64,000 nucleotides of DNA from an uncultured Nitrospiraceae bacterium (GCA_963811165.1 CAWEQH010000010.1:640001-704000); one strand, 5' to 3'. Positions 47,847 to 62,071 are shown, counted from the first letter of the stretch. Program-made: numbers and translations. Notes: generated from the letters alone by a model not told the origin.

Positions 47847-50800
47847 CTACTGGATGATCAGATTGACGATCGTCACCTTCCCGGCGGTAATAGTTAAGGT
47901 TCCGTCTATGGTCGTGTACCACAAGTTACTGGTAAAGCTTCCGTCGTAGCCCCCTATGATTGTGATATTAATATCCTTCCAAAAGACAAGGTCTTCGGTA
48001 AAGTTGAGCGCCTTGATCTCGATCACACTCCCTTCCGATGCATCATCTAATGCCTCCTGCAGTGTAGGATATTCCGATTCACCTATCTGTACCGGGTCGG
48101 TCGTGCTGGCGGTTACATGGATTGTCTTCGTAACGTGTGACTGTATGCCGGATGCTGTCGTCGTGAGAGTCACGTCATAGTCTCCGGCGGACAAGAAGAG
48201 GTGCGTGGGATTACGCTGTGTACTTGTCGCGGTGTCGCCAAAGTCCCATAGCCACAAAGTGGGGTTATTGGTGGAGGTGTCGGTAAATGCCACGCCGAGC
48301 GGCTCCTCTCCAGACATGGGTATTGCCGTGAAATTCGCATTCGATATGAAGGTCGCCTTCACCGTAAGGTTCGCCGTAACATTCGAGATCGTGAGCGGAT
48401 TGGAGGTCGATGTCGTCGTATTGACACCGTCGTTGATCGACCACTCGACAAAATGATTCCCCGGGTCGGCGTTTGCCGTAACCGCTGTCGTACTACCTCC
48501 ATAGCCGACTGTCTGGTTCGTATTACCCGTCAAATTCCCGTCGCCTTCGACAGAGAAAGTAACTGAAAATGTAAGGAGAGTAAACGTAGCGATGCAGGTC
48601 TTGTCCGCATCCATCGTCACCTGGCCGTCTGAACAGTCGGGGTCCCCTGTCCAGCCTCCGAAGACCGAGCCGGTGACGGCCGAGGGGGTCAGTGTAACAA
48701 CCGTGTCGGCAGCATAGCCGCTACAGTTACTGCCGCAAGATATTCCAGCCGGATCATTCGTGACCGACCCGCTCCCTGTGCCGCTTTTATTCACGATCAA
48801 CGTATGACCGTCGAAGGGGACATAGACCTCTTTTGTCGTCAGCAAAAGCGAAAGCGAAGCTTCCGAAATTCCTCCCTGGGCGTCTGCATTTGCCCGGACA
48901 TAATAGCGTGTATTAAGAGGCGGGGTAAGGCCCGTGATCTCCCATCCGCCCGTGATTCGTGATGCCGGGCCGAGGGAAGTCCAGGTTTCCAGATCGGTCG
49001 ATACGTCGAAAGTCACCTTGCTGACCTCCGTGCCCGATCCGCTTCTGAGTAAGGTGACGCTGGTCCCGTCAGAAGATGCCGAAAGGTCATATGACGCCGT
49101 GGTCGTATTGGTAAGTCGGGCGACATAGTTTCTGGCCACCCCGCCCAATAGTGTAAAATTCCCCACAGCAATGACCTTCCCGTCAGGCTGCACGGCGATT
49201 CCCTGTACTGTATTGTTTGCTCCCGGATTGAAGGAGTCGTCTATGCTTCCGGCGGGGTTGATACGCGCGATCCGGCTTCGGGCCGGCGTCCATACGACCG
49301 AGGTGAAAATTCCACCGATCAGGATCTTGCCGTCGGTCTGAAGGGCGATGGAATAAACAGAGTTATTCATGTCGATGGTAAAATCAGTGTCATTGCCACC
49401 GTCGGAATTCAGACGGGCCAGATTATACTTCGCGACCCCTCCTACGGAATTAAACGTGCCTCCGATAACGATCTTCCCATCGGCCTGCAGGGCCATCGCC
49501 ATAACATCAAGCCCGACTATGTTCGGAACAAAAGACGTGTCGCAGTCGCCATCGGGGTTCAGCCGTGCTATATACTTGCGAGACACACCGCTTGTATTTT
49601 GGAAGTAGCCGCCGATAAGGATCTTGCCGTCGGGCTGAATGATTATGGAATACACGCCGCCATCCACCGTGGCGACAAACGACGTATCGATGCTTCCGTT
49701 AGAGTTCAGCCGTGCGAAGAAATTCTTCGATACCCCTGCAATGGTCGTGAAATTACCGGATACCAGGATTTTTCCGTCGGGCTGCGGCACGACGGCGTAT
49801 ACCAGATCGTTGGGACTCGGATTGAATGTGCCATCGAGACTGCCGTCCGAATTCAGCCGGGCTATTCGGGACTGTGAAACGCCGCCGACAGTAACGAACG
49901 GTCCGCCTATGAGGATTTTACCGTCGGGCTGTACCGCAATCGACCGGACAGCGTTGCCTACATTGGGGTCAGGAAAAGAGTCGTCGAGGCTGCCGTCGGG
50001 GTTCAGCCTGGCAAGCCCGCGCCTGCCATCCCCGGCAATGCTTGTGAAGTAGCCGCCAAGCAAAATCTTGCCGTCCGGCTGCTGAGCGACCGAAACGACA
50101 GCGGCGCCGGCCCCGGGACTGAAAGTGGCATCGAGCGAGCCGTTTTCATGATGGAGCCGTACGACCCCGTTGCGTGAATAGGTATTAACGGTATTAAAGC
50201 TTCCAGCCAGCACGATCTTCCCATCCGACTGCTGCAGGATCGCCTCGGCCGCGCCGCCATTGAATACAGGGATGAACCCGCTATCGAAACTGCCGTCCTG
50301 TCTGAGACGCGCCACGTTCTGCTGCCATATTGAGTTCACATAGTTGAAGGGGCCGCTGATAATTATCTTCCCGTCTGCCTGAATGCAGAGCCGGCTGATG
50401 TAATTGATGTCGATGGTAGCTGTGAACGACGTGTCGATGGTCCCATTTGCGTTTAATCGAGCTATATATGCCTTGGGAGCTCCGCCTACCGTTGTAAAGG
50501 GGCCCCCGATGACGACCTGGCCATTCGGCTGAACCGCCACTGAGTTCGCCTGAAGATTGATATTAGGACCGCTGAAGGAGCTGTCCAAAGTACCATCGGC
50601 CAGGAGCCTCACAACCTTGCTGCCTCCTCCAAGGACTATCCTTCCGTCATCCATAAGTGCGAGGGAGTAAACCCCTCCCACCGCGGGAGGATTGTTGAAT
50701 GAGCTATCGAGAGTACCGTTTGAGTTGAGTCGTGCCATTCCGTTTACGGAAGCGCCCGCAATCTCCCAGAAGCCCCCGCCGATCAGGATCTTTCCGTCAG

Positions 50801-52432: not shown

Positions 52433-53128
52433 TCACTTTTTACTTTTTATTAATTCCCATTTCCCCTGAGGCGTCCGCACCTTTAAAGCCTTTTTGACGA
52501 TATTCAGGAACTCCGAACGCGGCACCTCTCTGGCGCCCATACTTATGAGATGTCGTGTCGTAACCTGACAGTCGATTATCCGGAATTTCCATCGAATGAG
52601 CTGCTGCACAAGTGTTGCCAGGGCGACCTTTGACGCATCGCTTTTTCTTGTAAACATGGACTCGCCGTAAAAAACACCTCCGAGCGCGACACCGTAAAGC
52701 CCTCCAGCCAGCTCACCGCCCGCCCAGCTTTCGACCGAATGCGCAAACCCTGCGTCATGCAGTCTGCAATATGCACTGATCATGTCCTCCGTGATCCAGG
52801 TCCCGTCTTCATCTTTCCGCCGTGATTCCGCGCAGCCCCTTATCACCATTTCAAATGCGTTATCGAAGGTTATCCGGTATGTCCCCTTTTTGATCGTCTG
52901 CCTCAGGCTCCTCGATACCTTGAGGTCTCCGGGGACAAGTACAAGCCGGGGATCAGGGGACCACCAAAGGATGGGAGAATCATCTGAATACCAGGGGAAT
53001 ATGCCCATCGAGTATGCCAGCAAGAGACGTTCGGGACTGAGGTCACCGCCCACTGCAAGAAGCCCGTCCTCCTCCGCCTGTTCAGGGGAAGGAAAAACTA
53101 TTTCATCAGGCAATCGGAAAACAGGCAT
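52433..53128 (-). CDS. aat: Leucyl/phenylalanyl-tRNA--protein transferase
   Basis: GLLAVGGDLSPERLLLAYSMGIFPW, WWSPDPR, GESMF..DASKVAL. Confidence 0.96.
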   Translation of the reverse strand: MPVFRLPDEIVFPSPEQAEEDGLLAVGGDLSPERLLLAYSMGIFPWYSDDSPILWWSPDPRLVLVPGDLKVSRSLRQTIKKGTYRITFDNAFEMVIRGCAESRRKDEDGTWITEDMISAYCRLHDAGFAHSVESWAGGELAGGLYGVALGGVFYGESMFTRKSDASKVALATLVQQLIRWKFRIIDCQVTTRHLISMGAREVPRSEFLNIVKKALKVRTPQGKWELIKSKK

Positions 53129-55380
53129 CAGGCGGAAAAATCGAACACCAATTTTTCTTCCATGAGCCCGATATGGACGCTCCCGCCTTTCTTAAGCCTG
53201 CCAAACAATACCTCGTCCGAAAGCACGTCCTTTATCTCTGTCTGTATGAGACGGGCGAGAGGTCTGGCGCCGTACATTGTGTCGTGTCCCTTTGATGCAA
53301 GCCAGTCGGTGGCATCGTCCGAAAGGGTAATCTTTACGTTCTTCTGTGTGAGCTGGCCCCGAAGTTCATCGATGAACTTTATCACAACCTGCCTCATGAT
53401 CCCCTGCGTAAGCGGATTGAACGTAATGATGCCGTCGAGCCTGTTCCTGAATTCAGGGCTGAAGAGTTTTGTTATCGCCTCCTTGCTCTTTGACCTGGTG
53501 TCGCTGCTTCTGTCGCCGAACCCTATCACTTCCCGGACAATGTCCTTCGCGCCGGCGTTTGAGGTCATGATGAGTATTACGTTTCTGAAATCCGCCTTTT
53601 TCCCGTTATTGTCCGTGAGAGTGGCGTAGTCCATCACCTGAAGCAATATGCTGAAGATATCAGGATGGGCCTTCTCCACCTCGTCCAGCAAAAGGACGCT
53701 GTAAGGGCTCCTTCGTATCGCCTCCGTAAGAAGGCCGGCCTGGTCAAAACCCACGTATCCCGGCGGAGCCCCTATCAGGCGGGCCACTGTATGCTTCTCC
53801 ATATACTCAGACATATCGAATCTGATAAATTTAACGCCCAGGACGGATGCCATCTGTTTCGACACCTCTGTCTTTCCGACGCCCGTAGGACCAGAAAAGA
53901 GGAAGGAGCCGATCGGCCGTTCAGGCGCGCCCAGGCCGGCGCGGTTCCTCTTTATCGCGGCAGAAAGAGAATGGATCGCGCTGTCCTGCCCGAATACCGC
54001 CCTTTTGAGCTCATCTTCGAGGTTCCTGAGCTTCTCCATGTCCGAAGTCGAGACTGTCCGGGAAGGTATCCTCGCCATCTTCGCCACGATCTTTTCGATC
54101 TCCTTGGTGCCTACGACCTTTTTGTTCTTAAAGGCCGGCGAGAGTTTAAGCACCGCCCCCGCCTCATCGATCACATCTATTGCCTTATCCGGCAGGAATT
54201 TGTCGTTTATGTATTTTGCAGAAAGCTCCCCGGCCGCCCTCAGTGCGCCTTCAGTGAATTTGACCTCGTGGAAGGCCTCGTAATGCGACTTGAGTCCTCC
54301 CAGGATCTCAATCGTTTCCTTAATAGAAGGCTCCTTTATCTCGATCTTCTGAAAACGCCTCGAAAGCGCCCTGTCCTTCTCGAAATAATTCTTGTACTCC
54401 TCGTAGGTGCTGGCACCGATGCAGCGCAGCCTGCCTGAATTGAGGACCGGTTTAAGGATATTGGAGGCGTCCATGGACCCGCCGCTCGTAGCTCCCGCCC
54501 CGACGACCGTATGGATCTCGTCGATAAAAAGTATCGCCCCCGGGATCTTCTCAAGCCTGCCGATAGTAGATTTCAGCCTCGCCTCAAAATCACCCCGGTA
54601 TTTCGTACCGGCAAGGAGCGCGCCCATGTCGAGCGAAAAAATCTGCGCCTCCCTGAGCGACCCGGGCACCTTACCCTCATGGATCTCCTGGGCAAGCCCC
54701 TCGACTATCGCCGTCTTCCCCACCCCGGGCTCACCCACGAAGATGACATTGTTCTTCTTTCTCCTGCTCAGCACCTGGACCGTCCTTTCGAGCTCGGCCT
54801 TTCGGCCGACAAGGGGATCGATCTCGCCGCGGGCGGCCTTTGCGGTAAGGTCCACGGTAAAGCTCTCAAGCGGGTCCTTTTTCCCCTGCCGTTCGGACTC
54901 GGGGCGTACTGACTCCGCATCATCAGGGCCCTCCTCGGCGTCTTGCGACGCCTCATCCATCCCATGCGAGATATAATTCAGTACATCGATACGCTTGATG
55001 CCCTGCGAATGGAGCAGATAGACCGCATGCGAATCTTCCTCAAGCAGCAATGATGCAAGGATATCGCCTGCGTCCGTCTCTTCCTTTGAAGCGGACTCGC
55101 TATGAAGAAGTGCCCTCTGAAATACCTTTTGAAAACCGACTGTCGGCTGGGGAAAAAGTGTCGACCCCTCTGCTGTCTTCGGCACACTTTCGTCGAAATA
55201 TCCGTCGATGGAAGCCTTCAGCTCCGATACGTCCCCCCCGCACGCCGTGATAATATCGGCGCCGAGCTCATCATGAAGCACTGCGTAAAGGATGTGCTCC
55301 ACGGTCAGGTACTCATGACTGCGGGTCTTGGCGTCCCTGATCATCGCCTCTATCGTCAATTCAAATTCCTTGTTAATCAT
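53128..55380 (-). CDS. clpA: ATP-dependent Clp protease ATP-binding subunit ClpA
   Basis: Two AAA+ modules (GEPGVGKT, GPTGVGKT), no middle domain, IGF loop; flanked by clpS and aat. Confidence 0.95.
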   Translation of the reverse strand: MINKEFELTIEAMIRDAKTRSHEYLTVEHILYAVLHDELGADIITACGGDVSELKASIDGYFDESVPKTAEGSTLFPQPTVGFQKVFQRALLHSESASKEETDAGDILASLLLEEDSHAVYLLHSQGIKRIDVLNYISHGMDEASQDAEEGPDDAESVRPESERQGKKDPLESFTVDLTAKAARGEIDPLVGRKAELERTVQVLSRRKKNNVIFVGEPGVGKTAIVEGLAQEIHEGKVPGSLREAQIFSLDMGALLAGTKYRGDFEARLKSTIGRLEKIPGAILFIDEIHTVVGAGATSGGSMDASNILKPVLNSGRLRCIGASTYEEYKNYFEKDRALSRRFQKIEIKEPSIKETIEILGGLKSHYEAFHEVKFTEGALRAAGELSAKYINDKFLPDKAIDVIDEAGAVLKLSPAFKNKKVVGTKEIEKIVAKMARIPSRTVSTSDMEKLRNLEDELKRAVFGQDSAIHSLSAAIKRNRAGLGAPERPIGSFLFSGPTGVGKTEVSKQMASVLGVKFIRFDMSEYMEKHTVARLIGAPPGYVGFDQAGLLTEAIRRSPYSVLLLDEVEKAHPDIFSILLQVMDYATLTDNNGKKADFRNVILIMTSNAGAKDIVREVIGFGDRSSDTRSKSKEAITKLFSPEFRNRLDGIITFNPLTQGIMRQVVIKFIDELRGQLTQKNVKITLSDDATDWLASKGHDTMYGARPLARLIQTEIKDVLSDEVLFGRLKKGGSVHIGLMEEKLVFDFSA

Positions 55381-55691
55381 TCTCTCTCCATTTCACATCT
55401 GAGCGGGTATTCGTTCTCCCTTGCGAGGTCGTGCACCTCGGAGATCTTCGTTTCGGCGATGTCCCTTGCGTACACGCCCGCCAACCCTCTTCCTTTTTTG
55501 TGCACATGAAGCATTATCCTCGTGGCCTCAACAGGGTCCTTGCGAAAAACGTTTTCGAGCACATGGACGACAAAGTCCATTGTCGTATAGTCGTCGTTCA
55601 GGAGGAAGACCTTGTAAAGATGGGGCCTCTCAGACTTCAGCCTCTCCTTTACGTCGACTTGCTCCCCGGGTTTAACCCCGCCGTTTCCCAT
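55377..55691 (-). CDS. clpS: Clp protease adaptor ClpS
   Basis: YKVFLLNDDYTTMDFVV, IMLHVH..G, AETK, YPLRC. Confidence 0.97.
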   Translation of the reverse strand: MGNGGVKPGEQVDVKERLKSERPHLYKVFLLNDDYTTMDFVVHVLENVFRKDPVEATRIMLHVHKKGRGLAGVYARDIAETKISEVHDLARENEYPLRCEMERE

Positions 55692-55794
55692 TCCGGTTCA
55701 ATTCCCTTCAGATGTTCCGTTTATTCCTTTTTTATATTTTACCATATAACGTCTTTGACTAAGATTGTATGGTTAGCAGGATATTAATAGAGTC

Positions 55795-55989
55795 GGGGCG
55801 TCGCCCCGTACCCCAGCTGCCTTTCTTGCCGACCAAGAAATGTAGCCGAAAGAAGTCCGACGAAAATTTTATACGGCTGCGCCGGTTGTCCTCGGTACAT
55901 TTTCGAACTCGCCCCTAACATCGGTGCTCAGACATGGGAAAATGCTTAACCCTGCGGGCGTCTGTGCTCACCTAAATTTTCGAAGGGGG
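55795..55989 (+). repeat. Structured repeat, copy 1 of an inverted pair
   Basis: Shares ordered motifs with the reverse complement of 56041-56241 (GGGGC..CGCCCC, TACCC, AAAATT..ACGG, AACTCGC..GCTCAGACA, CCTAAATTTT..AAGGGG). Confidence 0.65.
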
Positions 55990-56040
55990 TTTAAAGACTA
56001 AAAGCATTTCAAAAGGTAATTGTATTATGTACTAATGGGG

Positions 56041-56241
56041 CCCCTTTTAAAATTTAGGTTTCCGACCGAGGTCAAGCGTAAAAAATTGTAGACTGTCTGA
56101 GCTCCGGATTCCGGAGCGAGTTTCTACAATTTAGTGAGACCGACCAGAGGAAACCGTTAAGAATTTTATCTGGGGTGCGTACTTTTGGGCACTTTTCATT
56201 CGCATCAATGAAAAGCGCCCGGGTATAAGGGGCGGAGCCCC
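56041..56241 (-). repeat. Structured repeat, copy 2 of an inverted pair
   Basis: Same ordered motif series as 55795-55989 on the opposite strand, with different sequence in the stems. Confidence 0.65.
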
Positions 56242-56355
56242 TTTTTCGCCTGCGGAGAAGCTCCGCCCATTCCCTATTGATCGGATGTGCGTTATCATAG
56301 AGCATCAATAATCGAAATCATTCGCCTGATTTAATTAATCATAGAAGGAGATAAC

Positions 56356-57723
56356 TTGACGGACAAAGCGCCTCTTTATAACCTTACGATAGGAAACCTA
56401 TGGGAGAACATCTGGCGCACCTCATGGCCCATGTTCCTCACTATGGTTTTCACCTTTTTGGTCGGATTTACCGATGTCTATGTCGCGGGGTTCATAGGAC
56501 CCGAGGTGCAGGCCGCCGTGGGTTTCGTGAGCCAGTTTTACTTTCTTATTACGATAGTCGCAAACGCGATAAGCATCGGCACGCTGACGCTTGTTTCGAG
56601 GGCAATGGGCGCAGGCGACGATAAAAAGGCGATTGAAATCGCGAGACAGTCCCTGCTTTTCAGCATCGCCGTGGCCGCCGGCATCACCTCCGGCTGCTTC
56701 TTGTTCTACAGGGAGATAATCGCCTTTGCCGGCTTTCCGGAGGGCACAAGGGAAATGGCAGAACGGTTCCTCAGGATATTTGCCCTCTCGCTGGGACCAA
56801 ACTATATCCTGATAATTTCGAATGCGGTCTTCAGGGCGTCAGGCGAGGTGAAGAAACCGCTGTTTACGATGTTCCTTGTAAGCCTCATCAATATCGCAGG
56901 CGATTTCGCGCTCGTCTTCGGCATATTTCCATTTCCTCACATGGGGTACATCGGCATAGCGATCTCGACTGCGGCATCCGTCACCGCCGGAATGGCCGTC
57001 AGTCTTGGACTGTTTACTGTAGGATGGTGGCGTTCTTTTTATTCCCGCCCCTGGACCCTCTCCTACAATGTGGTCTTTAAGATCGCAAGGATCGGCTGGC
57101 CCGCGGCAATGCTTCAGATCGCATGGAATGCAGGCACGATCGTCTTGTATAATATCCTCGGTCGTCTCGGACCGGCGAGCATCCCGGCCCTGGCCTCGAT
57201 CACCAACGGGATGAGGATTGAGGCGATCATTTACCTGCCGGCCTTCGCACTTAATATGGCCGCCTCCGTACTGGTCGGGCAGAACCTTGGCGCAGGCAGG
57301 GCAGACCGTGCTGCGCAGGCGGGATGGAAGATAGCAAAGGCCTGCGTCCTTATTATAAGCCTTATGGCGGTACCTATCTTCATATGGGCCGAACAGTTCG
57401 CCTCCCTGCTTACAAAGAACCAGGCCGTCCTTGCGGAAACGGCCCGTTATCTTCGGTTCAACATGCTCTCTGAACCCTTCATGGCATTGAGTGCAATCCT
57501 GGGAGGAGGCCTTCAGGGGGCCGGAGATACGCGTGGGACGATGTGGGTGATCATTATTTCGATGTGGTTCATCAGACTGCCCCTAGCATATTCGCTGGCG
57601 CTTGTTATGGGCCATGGGGCCACAGGGGTCTGGACCGCCATGATTACGTCCATGGCCTTTCAGGGCATACTCATGTCGCTTCGGTTTCAGCAGGGACACT
57701 GGAAAAAACTCGGGTTCGATTAA
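56356..57723 (+). CDS. MATE family efflux transporter
   Basis: 12 TM; FRASGEVKKP, LVGQNLGAG, LQGAGDTR; AGGAG RBS with TTG start. Confidence 0.92.
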   Translation: MTDKAPLYNLTIGNLWENIWRTSWPMFLTMVFTFLVGFTDVYVAGFIGPEVQAAVGFVSQFYFLITIVANAISIGTLTLVSRAMGAGDDKKAIEIARQSLLFSIAVAAGITSGCFLFYREIIAFAGFPEGTREMAERFLRIFALSLGPNYILIISNAVFRASGEVKKPLFTMFLVSLINIAGDFALVFGIFPFPHMGYIGIAISTAASVTAGMAVSLGLFTVGWWRSFYSRPWTLSYNVVFKIARIGWPAAMLQIAWNAGTIVLYNILGRLGPASIPALASITNGMRIEAIIYLPAFALNMAASVLVGQNLGAGRADRAAQAGWKIAKACVLIISLMAVPIFIWAEQFASLLTKNQAVLAETARYLRFNMLSEPFMALSAILGGGLQGAGDTRGTMWVIIISMWFIRLPLAYSLALVMGHGATGVWTAMITSMAFQGILMSLRFQQGHWKKLGFD

Positions 57724-57736
57724 ACTATAAAGTAAG

Positions 57737-58951
57737 ATGCTGAGACTATTCAATACATACGGAAAAAAGATCGTTCCCTTCCGGCCGGTCAACAATAAAG
57801 TCACCACCGTATTCACCTGCGGCCCCTCGGTCTACCAGCGGTCGCATATCGGCAATTTCAGGACCTTTCTGTTTGAGGACGTACTTGTTCGCTACCTCGA
57901 ATATTCAGGGCACAAAGTGGTCAGGGGGATGACCGTCACAGACATAGAAGACAAGGCGATAGAAGAGGCGGCAAAAAACGGGACGACCGTCAGGCGCCTC
58001 ACCGATGAAAATCTAAAGGTATTCATCGGGGAGATGAAACTCCTTAAGATGAAAAGGCCCGATTTCCTTCCAAGGGCATCGGAGAATATAAAAGAGGCCG
58101 TCGAGATAATCAGGCGGCTTCTTTCACGCAGTATTGCCTACAGGCATGGGGGGAACGTCTATTTCGACCCGACAAAGTTTCGGGGGTTCGGAAGTCTTTA
58201 TGGACTCGACATGACGAAATGGCCCTCTAAGAGAATGAGGTTCCACAAAGATACCTATCCGGGCATGAGGTGGAACCTCGGGGACTTCATCCTCTGGCAC
58301 GGATACAGGCCGGGCGACGGGGACCACTGGGAGACGGCAATAGGCAGGGGAAGACCTTCATGGAACGTGCAGGACCCGAGCATGATAAGTAGATATTTCA
58401 ACGAAACCCTTTCCATCTACTGCGGCGGCATCGACAATCTTGTCCGGCACCATGACTATTCGAAGGCGGTCCTGGAATCGGTGCGGAGATATCCCATGGC
58501 GCGGTTTTGGCTCCACTGTCGTCACCTGCTGGTTGAGGGGCGGAAGATGTCTAAAAGCAGAGGGAACATCGTCTACCCCGAAACCCTGCTTAAACAAGGG
58601 TACAGTCCCGAGGAGATCAGGTTTTTCCTTGTCTGCGGCCATTATCGCAAAGACCTCAACTATTGCGAGCAAAGTATTAAGTCGGCCGTTTCGGCACTAA
58701 GGGAGATAAAGAAAAAGGTTGCAGAAATTCGGAAGAAGGCAGGCGTGTCCCGTCCCGATCAGACGATTACCGGAAAGGTCGAAGAGATTTTCAGCAAAGG
58801 GATGGACAACGACCTCGATGCAGCAGCCGCCTTCGACGGACTTCGCGAGATGCTGTCCCGAGACTATATAGAGCGCTTAAGCCCCAAAGAGGCTTCGGGC
58901 GTCGTCGCCGGCATGAAGGAGATCGACAAGGTCTTCAGGGTCATCTTTTAG
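57737..58951 (+). CDS. Cysteinyl-tRNA synthetase-like paralog (atypical, C-terminally short)
   Basis: LFNT, CGPSVY..HIGNFR, TDIEDK, DFILW and KMSKSRGN present; canonical GRPGWHIEC and FPHHENE motifs altered; 404 aa. Confidence 0.85.
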   Translation: MLRLFNTYGKKIVPFRPVNNKVTTVFTCGPSVYQRSHIGNFRTFLFEDVLVRYLEYSGHKVVRGMTVTDIEDKAIEEAAKNGTTVRRLTDENLKVFIGEMKLLKMKRPDFLPRASENIKEAVEIIRRLLSRSIAYRHGGNVYFDPTKFRGFGSLYGLDMTKWPSKRMRFHKDTYPGMRWNLGDFILWHGYRPGDGDHWETAIGRGRPSWNVQDPSMISRYFNETLSIYCGGIDNLVRHHDYSKAVLESVRRYPMARFWLHCRHLLVEGRKMSKSRGNIVYPETLLKQGYSPEEIRFFLVCGHYRKDLNYCEQSIKSAVSALREIKKKVAEIRKKAGVSRPDQTITGKVEEIFSKGMDNDLDAAAAFDGLREMLSRDYIERLSPKEASGVVAGMKEIDKVFRVIF

Positions 58952-58952
58952 A

Positions 58953-60509
58953 ATGCTTCTCATTTATCCGCCCGTTTCGAAACCGTCCGAACCCCCGGCT
59001 GGCCTGGCAAAACTCTCGGCCGCGCTGAAGGCCCACGGCATTGGGCACAGGGCCGTCGACGCCAATATCGAAGGGCTTCTATGGCTTTTGGGAGAGTCGT
59101 CCTTGCGGCCTAAGGAGGGACTCGATACCTGGACCAGACGGTCAGTTCGCAATCTCCCTAAAAACCTGTCTCTGTTGAAAGACCTCGCCACGTATCGCAC
59201 GTTTGACCGTTATAAACGGGCCGTTAAAGACCTTAACCGCGTCATCGAATTCTCATCGGAAGGGGCGGGCGCAAAGGCAGGCCTTTCGGACTTTCAGCAC
59301 GCAGGGCTTTCGCCTGTAAGAAGCGCTGATCTTATATACGCCGCTTCGCATCCGGAGCAAAACCCGTTTTTTAGATATTTCAGGGACCGTCTCGCAGAGC
59401 TCTTTACGGAGTCTCAGCCCTCTTTTGTCGGGTTCTCGCTTAATTACTTCAGCCAGGCCCTGACAACATTTTCAATGATAGGACTCGTTAAAAAAATGCT
59501 GCCGGGGGCCGCCGTGATACTAGGGGGCGGTCTTGTAACTTCGTGGATGCAGGGGCCTTCCTGGAAGGACCCTTTCCACGGTCTCATAGACCATCTCGTG
59601 GCAGGACCCGGAGAAGAGGCCCTTATTACGATTGCAGGCCAAGGATCAAAGAGCACGCTGCACGTCACTCCGGACTATACGCCCTTTTGCGGCCATGGGT
59701 ATATTTCACCGGGGTTTATTCTCCCCTACAGCGCCTCAAGCGGATGCTACTGGAGGAAGTGCTCCTTCTGTCCTGAGACCGCAGAAGACAATCCTTACTC
59801 GCCCGTACCTGGAGACATGGTAATCTCCGATCTGGAGAGTCTCATACATAAGACAAAGCCTGTCTTGGTCCACCTCCTTGATAACGCGGTAGGCGCATCT
59901 CTTATGAAGTCGCTGCAGAAAAACCCGCCCGGCGTGCCCTGGTATGGATTTGCACGGATCGACCGGCAGCTCACTGACCTTGATTTCTGTATCTCTCTCA
60001 GGCGTTCCGGCTGTGTCATGCTGAAACTCGGCCTGGAATCAGGGGACCAGGCCGTGCTCGACAGGATGCATAAGGGGATCGACCTGGGGACAGCGTCCCT
60101 TGCACTTAAAACACTTAAGAAGGCAGGTATCGGGACTTACGTCTACCTCCTTTTCGGCACCCCGGAAGAGACTGAGGCCGGGGCCGGAAAAACACTCGAT
60201 TTCGTCATAAGACACAAGGGAGAGATAAGTTTCCTGAACCTCGCGATATTCAATATGCCGCTGAGCACTGCTATCTCCGGGGACTTCGAAAGAAGTAGTT
60301 TTTACGAAGGCGACCTATCACTCTATACGGACTTTTCGCACCCGGCAGGCTGGGACCGCAGGTCGGTAAGAAAATTTCTTGAGGACGAATTCAAAAAACA
60401 TACGGCCGTGGCATCCATAATTAAGAAAGACCCGCCGTTTTTTACCTCAAACCATGCGCCATTTTTTCTGCCGTCTGTCGGCTGGGTTATCACAGCTCCG
60501 ACTCCGTAA
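58953..60509 (+). CDS. Cobalamin-binding-domain radical SAM protein
   Basis: VGFS..SQ..ILGG B12-like domain, GPGE, GCYWRKCSFC, LGLESG, LFGTPEET. Confidence 0.85.
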   Translation: MLLIYPPVSKPSEPPAGLAKLSAALKAHGIGHRAVDANIEGLLWLLGESSLRPKEGLDTWTRRSVRNLPKNLSLLKDLATYRTFDRYKRAVKDLNRVIEFSSEGAGAKAGLSDFQHAGLSPVRSADLIYAASHPEQNPFFRYFRDRLAELFTESQPSFVGFSLNYFSQALTTFSMIGLVKKMLPGAAVILGGGLVTSWMQGPSWKDPFHGLIDHLVAGPGEEALITIAGQGSKSTLHVTPDYTPFCGHGYISPGFILPYSASSGCYWRKCSFCPETAEDNPYSPVPGDMVISDLESLIHKTKPVLVHLLDNAVGASLMKSLQKNPPGVPWYGFARIDRQLTDLDFCISLRRSGCVMLKLGLESGDQAVLDRMHKGIDLGTASLALKTLKKAGIGTYVYLLFGTPEETEAGAGKTLDFVIRHKGEISFLNLAIFNMPLSTAISGDFERSSFYEGDLSLYTDFSHPAGWDRRSVRKFLEDEFKKHTAVASIIKKDPPFFTSNHAPFFLPSVGWVITAPTP

Positions 60510-61750: not shown

Positions 61751-61816
61751 CAAAATTTCGCAAAAAAATTTCACCGCCTTCGGTAAGGCTCAGTTATGGA
61801 TCAGAAGGCACTGACT

Positions 61817-61962
61817 GTCATTCCGGCAGTGTGTTGAGCCGGAATCCAGTGACGTGGCCTTAAAGTCGCTGGATGCCGGATCAGGTCCGGCATGACCATA
61901 CAAGCAAAGCATGCCCCGGTGAAAACCGGGGTCCCTGGATGCCGGATCAAGTCCGGCATGAC
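61817..61962. repeat. Two tandem REP-like nested palindromes (GTCAT...ATGAC family)
   Basis: GTCATTCCGGC..GCCGGAATCCAGTGAC..GTCGCTGGATGCCGGATCAGGTCCGGCATGAC, then a second unit ending CTGGATGCCGGATCAAGTCCGGCATGAC. Confidence 0.75.
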
Positions 61963-62071
61963 GGCATACATAACATAATCTTACTCGTAACTGAAGCCGT
62001 ACCCGTGTATTCAACTGCTGTGTCTTCATAACCCATATCTGAATGGATACTGCCTTCGTCAATACCACGGG

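Follow-up and report, generated by a model that had tools for sequence, protein, structure and literature searches.

Class I aminoacyl-tRNA synthetases form an aminoacyl-AMP and then transfer the amino acid onto a nucleophile, and the same chemistry is used by MshC, the Cys:GlcN-Ins ligase of mycothiol synthesis. GluQ-RS (YadB), a synthetase paralog acting on RNA outside normal charging, lacks an anticodon domain. It is a truncated GluRS that acylates the queuosine of tRNA-Asp, and the accessible text of the review describing it names MshC and CysRS* as the only functional paralogs of cysteinyl-tRNA synthetase, CysRS (PMC9437257). The zinc ligands of CysRS itself are C28, C209, H234 and E238 (PMC7563103). 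The subject of the present analysis is a CysRS paralog encoded by the middle gene of a three-gene operon, positions 56356 to 60509 of a 64,000-nucleotide stretch of DNA, here called the window, from an uncultured Nitrospiraceae bacterium (GCA_963811165.1 CAWEQH010000010.1:640001-704000). The gene before it encodes a MATE-family transporter and the gene after it a radical S-adenosylmethionine (SAM) enzyme. The protein represents a third kind of CysRS paralog, widespread and with an active site rebuilt identically in every member, and its recurrent genomic partner is the MATE gene. The family is not described in the accessible portions of PMC9437257, PMC8762117, PMC9976931, PMC6282198, PMC4351081 and PMC9774590, and no paper on it or on its pairing with a MATE gene was found in the literature searched, most subscription papers lying outside that literature.

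The operon and its second CysRS copy

The features on which the argument depends are listed below, with the basis of each in brackets.

56343..56350, plus strand: Shine-Dalgarno-like AGAAGGAG, 5 nt upstream of the TTG with which the MATE gene starts (sequence)
56356..57723, plus strand: efflux transporter of the MATE family (455 aa), conserved as the paralog's upstream partner (PF01554 and TIGR00797 above cut-off; locus counts)
57737..58951, plus strand: CysRS paralog, 404 aa, with Rossmann fold, connective peptide (CP) domain and helical bundle but lacking the C-terminal anticodon domain, isoelectric point (pI) 9.67 (profiles, alignment, model)
57818..57820, plus strand: C28, zinc ligand retained in 121/121 sequences; GPS and, at residues 37-40, the HIGN ATP motif come next (alignment)
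58202..58306, plus strand: rebuilt CP1/acceptor loop, residues 156-190, with new basic residues R/K166 and K171 (alignment, model)
58373..58375, plus strand: D213 in WNVQD, in place of C209, a zinc ligand in E. coli CysRS, in 121/121 (alignment)
58445..58462, plus strand: RHHDYS, residues 237-242, in which ligand H234 is retained, P233 is replaced by R in 121/121 and E238 by T, S or N (alignment)
58544..58558, plus strand: KMSKS class I ATP motif, intact (alignment)
58953..60509, plus strand: radical SAM enzyme, 518 aa, with a likely cobalamin-binding N-terminal domain, a lineage-limited neighbour (profiles, adjacency, distribution)
59745..59771, plus strand: CX4CX2C cluster motif (C265, C270, C273) of the radical SAM enzyme, invariant in 51 aligned homologs and with the spacing of OxsB (alignment)

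The three genes lie on the plus strand with spacers of 13 bp and then 1 bp, and this arrangement, like the identities given in an earlier note made from the sequence, is confirmed by open reading frames, profiles and spanning contigs. Contigs from DNA runs span both junctions, that between the MATE gene and the paralog in X1 record 3 and that between the paralog and the radical SAM gene in X1 record 5, X2 record 12 and X3 record 23, so the gene order is not an assembly artefact; these contigs come from three studies, of which X1 may be the source sample and X2 and X3 are others. The spacing suggests that the three genes are co-transcribed. A scan for promoters and terminators gave counts at chance level (4 vs 4.1 and 8 vs 6.6), and no Rfam match was found between window positions 50000 and 64000. 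The MATE protein matches PF01554 with 170.7 bits over two MatE repeats and TIGR00797 with 215.5 against a cut-off of 147.4, and reaches no named equivalog. The paralog matches PF01406 with 236 bits, and its scores for TIGR00435 (cysS, 288.8) and TIGR03447 (MshC, 188) fall under the cut-offs of 340 and 485.1, respectively.

A canonical cysS stands elsewhere in the same genome, which its named relatives place within Thermodesulfovibrionales near Candidatus Sulfobium. This copy (G000:C8:197881-199983, L262) scores 585.5 for TIGR00435 and has its C-terminal domain, and because it is full-length the 404-aa protein is a paralog; the possibility that the latter is the only cysS of the genome is rejected, and the repurposed paralog proposed earlier stands beside the separate cysS for which that proposal called. 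The canonical copy shares a single frame of 700 codons with an N-terminal cysE part that resembles serine acetyltransferase (hexapeptide). Matches to both CysS_C and DALR are present on it and absent from the paralog, which stops at residue 404, corresponding to profile position 399/466, and thus has no anticodon domain.

The paralog is widely but patchily distributed. At least 590 paralog stretches were confirmed in a scan of GTDB species genomes, in several hundred genomes, and the best 80 were analysed as loci, a sample that for this reason leans to close relatives. Carriers number 28/151 genomes of the window's order, 24/151 Syntrophales and 7/301 sampled genomes of the phylum of G324, itself a member of the Syntrophales. 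No fusion partner was found at E 1e-90 among proteins of 747-2130 aa, which is weak evidence. A single distant member is fused in frame to a preceding DUF488 domain (PF22752), giving a 538-aa protein (L099:7607-9223, G568). Two proteins of 768 and 783 aa (P0135, P0178) are full CysRS behind an N-terminal domain that, from its sequence resemblance, we take to be cysteine-synthase-like.

A rebuilt active site and a conserved MATE partner

The survey of residue conservation covered the paralog and its 120 top-ranking homologs (60-97% identity, n=121). The ATP motifs, C28, G29, T68, D69, W209 (W205 in E. coli) and H238 (H234) vary little or not at all, indicating that the paralog is under selection; H37, G39, N40 and K270, M271, S272, K273 occur in 121/121. 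Further replacements, in E. coli numbering, are H206 to N and E208 to Q (120/121 each) and T31S. In 106 canonical-type CysRS sequences T31, H206 and E238 are fixed in 105-106; this set was chosen by its WxxEC motif, which by definition fixes C209 and E208. WNxQD and RHHDY are present in all 80 genome loci, and the CP1/acceptor loop contains the invariant residues W162, P163, H170, D172, T173, Y174, G176, W179, N180, G182 and D183. Conserved basic residues gained relative to canonical CysRS are R35, R63, R/K166, K171, R237 and R250. Basic residues have been gained in the CP loop and in helix 311-340, and the median pI of the family is 9.46 compared with 5.93 in the matching region of canonical CysRS. 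These gains may form an anion-binding acceptor site, suited either to the end of an RNA or to a small molecule bearing phosphate or carboxylate groups. The structure model, at a mean predicted local distance difference test (pLDDT) of 84.9, has the CysRS fold, with template modelling (TM) scores of 0.87 to 8QHP and 0.81 to MshC 8HFN; confidence is low in the rebuilt segments 167-177 and 231-238, and the predicted pocket geometry is for that reason tentative.

The earlier suggestion that the paralog adenylates a non-cysteine acid is not demonstrated by these residues. Those on the amino-group and thiol side (C28, G29, T68, D69, W205 and H234 in E. coli numbering) are retained, MshC, a cysteine ligase, shares the HHxYS...ESV pattern, and Asp is found at position 209 in five full-length CysRS, three of which were scored and lie above the cysS cut-off. 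On the other hand, the C209D replacement greatly lowered the translation activity of E. coli CysRS (PMC10655014; PMC7563103). In a fast tree of 137 rows, from which rows with more than 25% gaps, five corrupted or odd rows and the motif columns were excluded, the paralog family is one clade (support 99) beside four short CysRS-like proteins that retain C209 (support 85). These four (P0138, P0141, P0148, P0152), two of them named Micrarchaeota, have 405-413 aa and are very basic; they are possible intermediates between CysRS and the paralog family.

A MATE gene lies directly upstream of the paralog on the same strand in 52/79 informative loci, in 51 of these within ~300 bp, and again in 16/18 further loci (20 taken, of which two duplicate earlier ones). 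Records with the pair are named Nitrospirota, Thermodesulfobacteriota/Deltaproteobacteria and Chloroflexota, so that for the MATE gene the linkage anticipated in the earlier note is conserved across several phyla; it is a tight link, and one MATE subfamily accounts for it. The MATE tree and the locus-level paralog tree, a quick IQ-TREE result, contain matching subclades for the Nitrospirota and Thermodesulfobacteriota members. Among 41 genomes of the window's order, a MATE ortholog is present in 18/21 paralog carriers and in 0/20 non-carriers, the latter being the first 20 listed rather than a random draw, and in two genomes (G172, G287) the ortholog is retained although unlinked from the paralog. 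In G727 (L256) both genes carry a +1 insertion outside homopolymers while the compared neighbours are intact, which may reflect joint decay or sequencing error. Other neighbours among 81 loci include phosphoglucomutase (10), dienelactone hydrolase (10), thioredoxin (8), NifS/NifU (7-9) and superoxide dismutase (SOD, 5), and those compared with the tree follow single clades or shared blocks. On balance it is probable, with some reserve, that the MATE transporter and the paralog are functionally coupled.

The best available explanation, although still tentative, is that the two genes form a make-and-export module with a small-molecule acceptor. The paralog would likely adenylate cysteine or a close analogue. 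C28, D213 and H238 may still hold a metal, and the gain of R35, R166, K171 and R237 together with the loss of D34 and E208 could create an anion-binding acceptor site. The activated amino acid would then pass to a negatively charged small acceptor rather than to tRNA, and the MATE pump would likely export the product. That the acceptor is a small molecule rather than RNA is itself favoured only slightly.

Several observations weigh against the module. The MATE neighbour is missing in 27/79 close loci, and a distant paralog subfamily (44-47% identity) lacks it in 4/4. Conversely, G644 has the MATE ortholog and no paralog, as do three more genomes in which the contig stops at this gene, and the MATE gene is frameshifted next to an intact paralog in L007, L066 and L244. 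No acceptor-making gene is conserved next to the pair among the recurrent neighbours. The strongly basic character of the family and its grouping with the short C209-retaining proteins fit an RNA acceptor. Finally, in the window's order (151 genomes) 21/28 paralog carriers have the radical SAM gene, compared with 13/123 others.

The RNA acceptor leads to the alternative that survives best, although it is considered rather unlikely: the paralog would still act on RNA, either as an anticodon-blind synthetase or as a tRNA-modifying enzyme comparable to GluQ-RS or CysRS*, perhaps serving as a reserve enzyme that tolerates oxidation and has lost one zinc cysteine, and the MATE gene would be a neighbour transferred along with it. 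Besides the kinship just mentioned, the basic residues acquired by the CP loop and by helix 311-340 are consistent with this explanation, as are clusters of 394-397-aa CysRS-type proteins in Mycoplasmatota and Nitrososphaerota (automatic names) and the five full-length CysRS with Asp209. Among the loci without a MATE gene, five have SOD and three have rubrerythrin-type genes close to the paralog, and an engineered CysRS without its anticodon domain still charged tRNA (PMC5389517). However, no tRNA-Cys, tRNA-Sec or selC* gene was found in the 60 loci (of 80) that were scanned, and the selC*-type tRNA-Cys(GCA) does not track the paralog, occurring in 13/20 carriers and 8/20 others. The great reduction in translation activity of E. 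coli CysRS C209D (PMC10655014) also argues against it, and action on RNA leaves both the MATE linkage and the retention of unlinked MATE genes unexplained.

The radical SAM gene and the surroundings of the operon

The third gene was labelled a B12 radical SAM enzyme in the earlier note. The radical SAM assignment holds (PF04055, 31.5 against a cut-off of 29.5); the B12 part is weak because the B12-binding profile PF02310 scores 22.7, under 32.1. A radical SAM gene directly follows the paralog in 4/74 informative loci and in 0/18 further loci. Three of the four adjacent loci form a clade with the window (support 99), the fourth (L051) belongs to the window's group by its MATE gene, and three metagenome contigs with the same arrangement belong to the window's clade. 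No neighbour recurs at the radical SAM gene across 34 other loci. Among 151 Syntrophales genomes, 130 have the radical SAM gene, 24 the paralog and 23 both, adjacent in none; 107/127 paralog-free genomes carry it, so that at least 107 genomes use the enzyme independently of the paralog. In the 301 sampled genomes of the phylum of G324 the corresponding numbers are 85, 7 and 4, with the gene present in 81/294 paralog-free genomes. The association of the two genes gives a Fisher p of 0.20 for the Syntrophales and 0.10 for the phylum sample, and the radical SAM gene is present in 35/50 further carrier genomes. The Syntrophales family of this enzyme (e.g. L132-L151) is near-core, stand-alone and ~50-60% identical, with the CX4CX2C motif and, at the C terminus, an SNHA segment that is invariant.

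These results bear on the possibility that the trio is one pathway, in which the radical SAM enzyme would generate or modify the paralog's substrate or product, and genes that are usually scattered would have been gathered in the window's family. In its most specific form, an OxsB-like radical SAM enzyme would supply or tailor the anionic acceptor, the paralog would ligate the amino acid without tRNA, and a dedicated MATE pump would export an undescribed cysteine-containing metabolite of sulfur-cycling anaerobes. Both the general and the specific form are judged distinctly improbable. The tight spacing, the presence of the trio or of the paralog-radical SAM pair in L001, L002, L003, L051, L158, L159 and L161, and the co-occurrence in the window's order described above argue for a single pathway. 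By genus the latter amounts to 12/16 vs 10/63, kin not being independent; families f3 and f11 have the radical SAM gene in paralog carriers only, and G694, of the same genus, has neither gene. Against this stand the rarity of adjacency, confined to one clade or group, the lack of a conserved neighbour at the 34 radical SAM loci, and the many paralog-free genomes with the enzyme in Syntrophales and in the phylum of G324. Moreover, the seven paralog carriers of the window's order without the radical SAM gene have smaller genomes (median 2.2 vs 3.1 Mb), so that genome size confounds the association, and common gain in the same lineages accounts for the co-occurrence as well as a common pathway does.

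The radical SAM enzyme is thus very probably not an obligatory partner, and its gene is most likely that of an independent enzyme that joined the operon as a passenger in one family; it cannot be taken for granted as a component of the system formed by the paralog and the MATE transporter. The earlier expectation that all three genes would prove linked in other genomes consequently fails for this gene, with adjacency in one family. The same note had named two findings that would speak against its reading, absence of co-conservation and a sole cysS charging tRNA-Cys; the former applies to the radical SAM gene only, and the latter does not apply, as the genome has its canonical copy.

Upstream of the operon, and outside the system, lies one further feature.

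55793..56266, no strand assigned: dispersed non-coding repeat, ~470 bp (long copies 71-80% identical on contigs C1, C4, C8 and C10)

The repeat also matches the region upstream of the L002 operon and resembles a miniature inverted-repeat transposable element, by resemblance only. A different repeat family, short, palindromic and dispersed over the genome in many copies, is found at window positions ~61780-62050. A clpS-clpA-aat operon, in which aat encodes Leu/Phe-tRNA-protein transferase, occupies 52433-55691 on the minus strand, divergent from the MATE gene; it is absent among the recurrent neighbours of the paralog.

Remaining alternatives and comparison with known systems

Two further explanations are both regarded as very improbable. 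In the first, the paralog is a dedicated cysteine-persulfide synthase, the natural counterpart of Cys-to-Asp CysRS mutants, and the MATE pump exports a sulfur product. Many hosts of the paralog are sulfur-cycling anaerobes, some copies adjoin redox-stress genes, and K73, K270 and K273 are found in 121/121 sequences. Of the lysines associated with the persulfide synthase activity of CysRS (Akaike 2017), K73 and K76 belong to KIIK and K270 and K273 to KMSK. The mutants C28/209D (PMC5660078) and C209D (PMC10655014) retained persulfide production while losing translation activity. However, K76, at which a single mutation lowered the activity, is Lys in 33/121 and Glu in the window's copy, persulfide production needs neither the ATP motifs nor the rebuilt acceptor loop, yet both are conserved, and the cell's own canonical CysRS would in any case provide it.

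In the second, the paralog either adds cysteine to a xenobiotic or activates an analogue of cysteine that is harmful, and the MATE pump removes the conjugate. MATE pumps are typical detoxifiers, the paralog is patchy and horizontally spread, and the lack of a conserved biosynthetic neighbour would be expected, because with a xenobiotic or analogue conjugate no acceptor-making gene is needed; the invariant acceptor loop nevertheless suggests one specific ligand, and no direct evidence of detoxification was found. Two narrower candidates are also disfavoured: a substitute for bacillithiol synthase is rejected since no bshA, the only glucosamine-acceptor gene searched for in the genome, is above cut-off (best 127.9 vs 273.7), and a dedicated enzyme for the selC*-type tRNA-Cys(GCA) is not supported by the carrier and non-carrier counts given above, which rest on the best match per genome, with 9/40 genomes lacking a match.

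If the make-and-export module is correct and yields a new thiol or conjugate, the finding would bear on redox-stress buffering or the disposal of sulfur compounds in sulfate-reducing and syntrophic anaerobes. Among described proteins, canonical CysRS (TIGR00435; 8QHP, 1LI5/1LI7/1U0B, 3SP1; HIGN-type branch) shares with the paralog the fold (TM 0.84-0.87), the helical bundle, HIGN, KMSKS, C28, G29, T68, D69, W205, H234 and H235. The paralog differs from it in lacking the C-terminal anticodon domain, in its sub-cut-off score and accessory position next to a canonical cysS, and in C209D, E238S/T/N, H206N, E208Q, P233R, T31S and the rebuilt basic CP loop.

CysRS*, which accompanies selC*/SelB* in Desulfobacterales (Mukai et al., PMC5389517), is likewise a second cysS copy without an anticodon domain, with changes in CP1 and in related anaerobes. 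The paralog, unlike CysRS*, lies away from selB*/selC* and has no PTVS motif; no selB-like cluster was found among its recurrent neighbours. The window's genome contains, besides ordinary tRNA-Cys and tRNA-Sec, a 90-nt long-arm selC*-type tRNA-Cys(GCA) (G000:C4:471037-471126, L261), a type described for Thermodesulfovibrio (PMC5389517), and genes like it are the best match in 21/40 genomes of the window's order. This tRNA has GCA and G1, whereas that of the CysRS* system has UCA and A1:U72 (PMC5389517). GluQ-RS belongs to a different synthetase family, and the RNA substrate that it demonstrates is hypothetical for the CysRS paralog.

For the radical SAM protein the only solved relatives found are OxsB (5UL2), AprD4 (6FD2) and TsrM (6WTE), all very distant (E 1e-7, 9e-14 and 3e-5); the match to OxsB covers positions 149-299 and the two share the CX4CX2C spacing (PMC9204698). 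The protein is below every NCBIfam cut-off and is encoded by a stand-alone gene in most genomes.

MshC (TIGR03447; 3C8Z, 8HFM) resembles the paralog in being CysRS-derived, of ~410 aa and without an anticodon domain, and, in the alignment to 8HFM, in having HHxYS...ESV where canonical CysRS has HHENE. In 8HFM, however, the second zinc cysteine is present in WHVEC and the loop reads ERGGDP, compared with WNVQD and RFHKDTYPG in the paralog, which for these reasons and by its score is not a member of the MshC family and which groups with HIGN-type CysRS relatives in a tree built without MshC. By analogy, MshC is nonetheless the enzyme that the paralog may most resemble in its working, and the family falls within the known theme of a synthetase paralog turned ligase, as a variant with a MATE partner.

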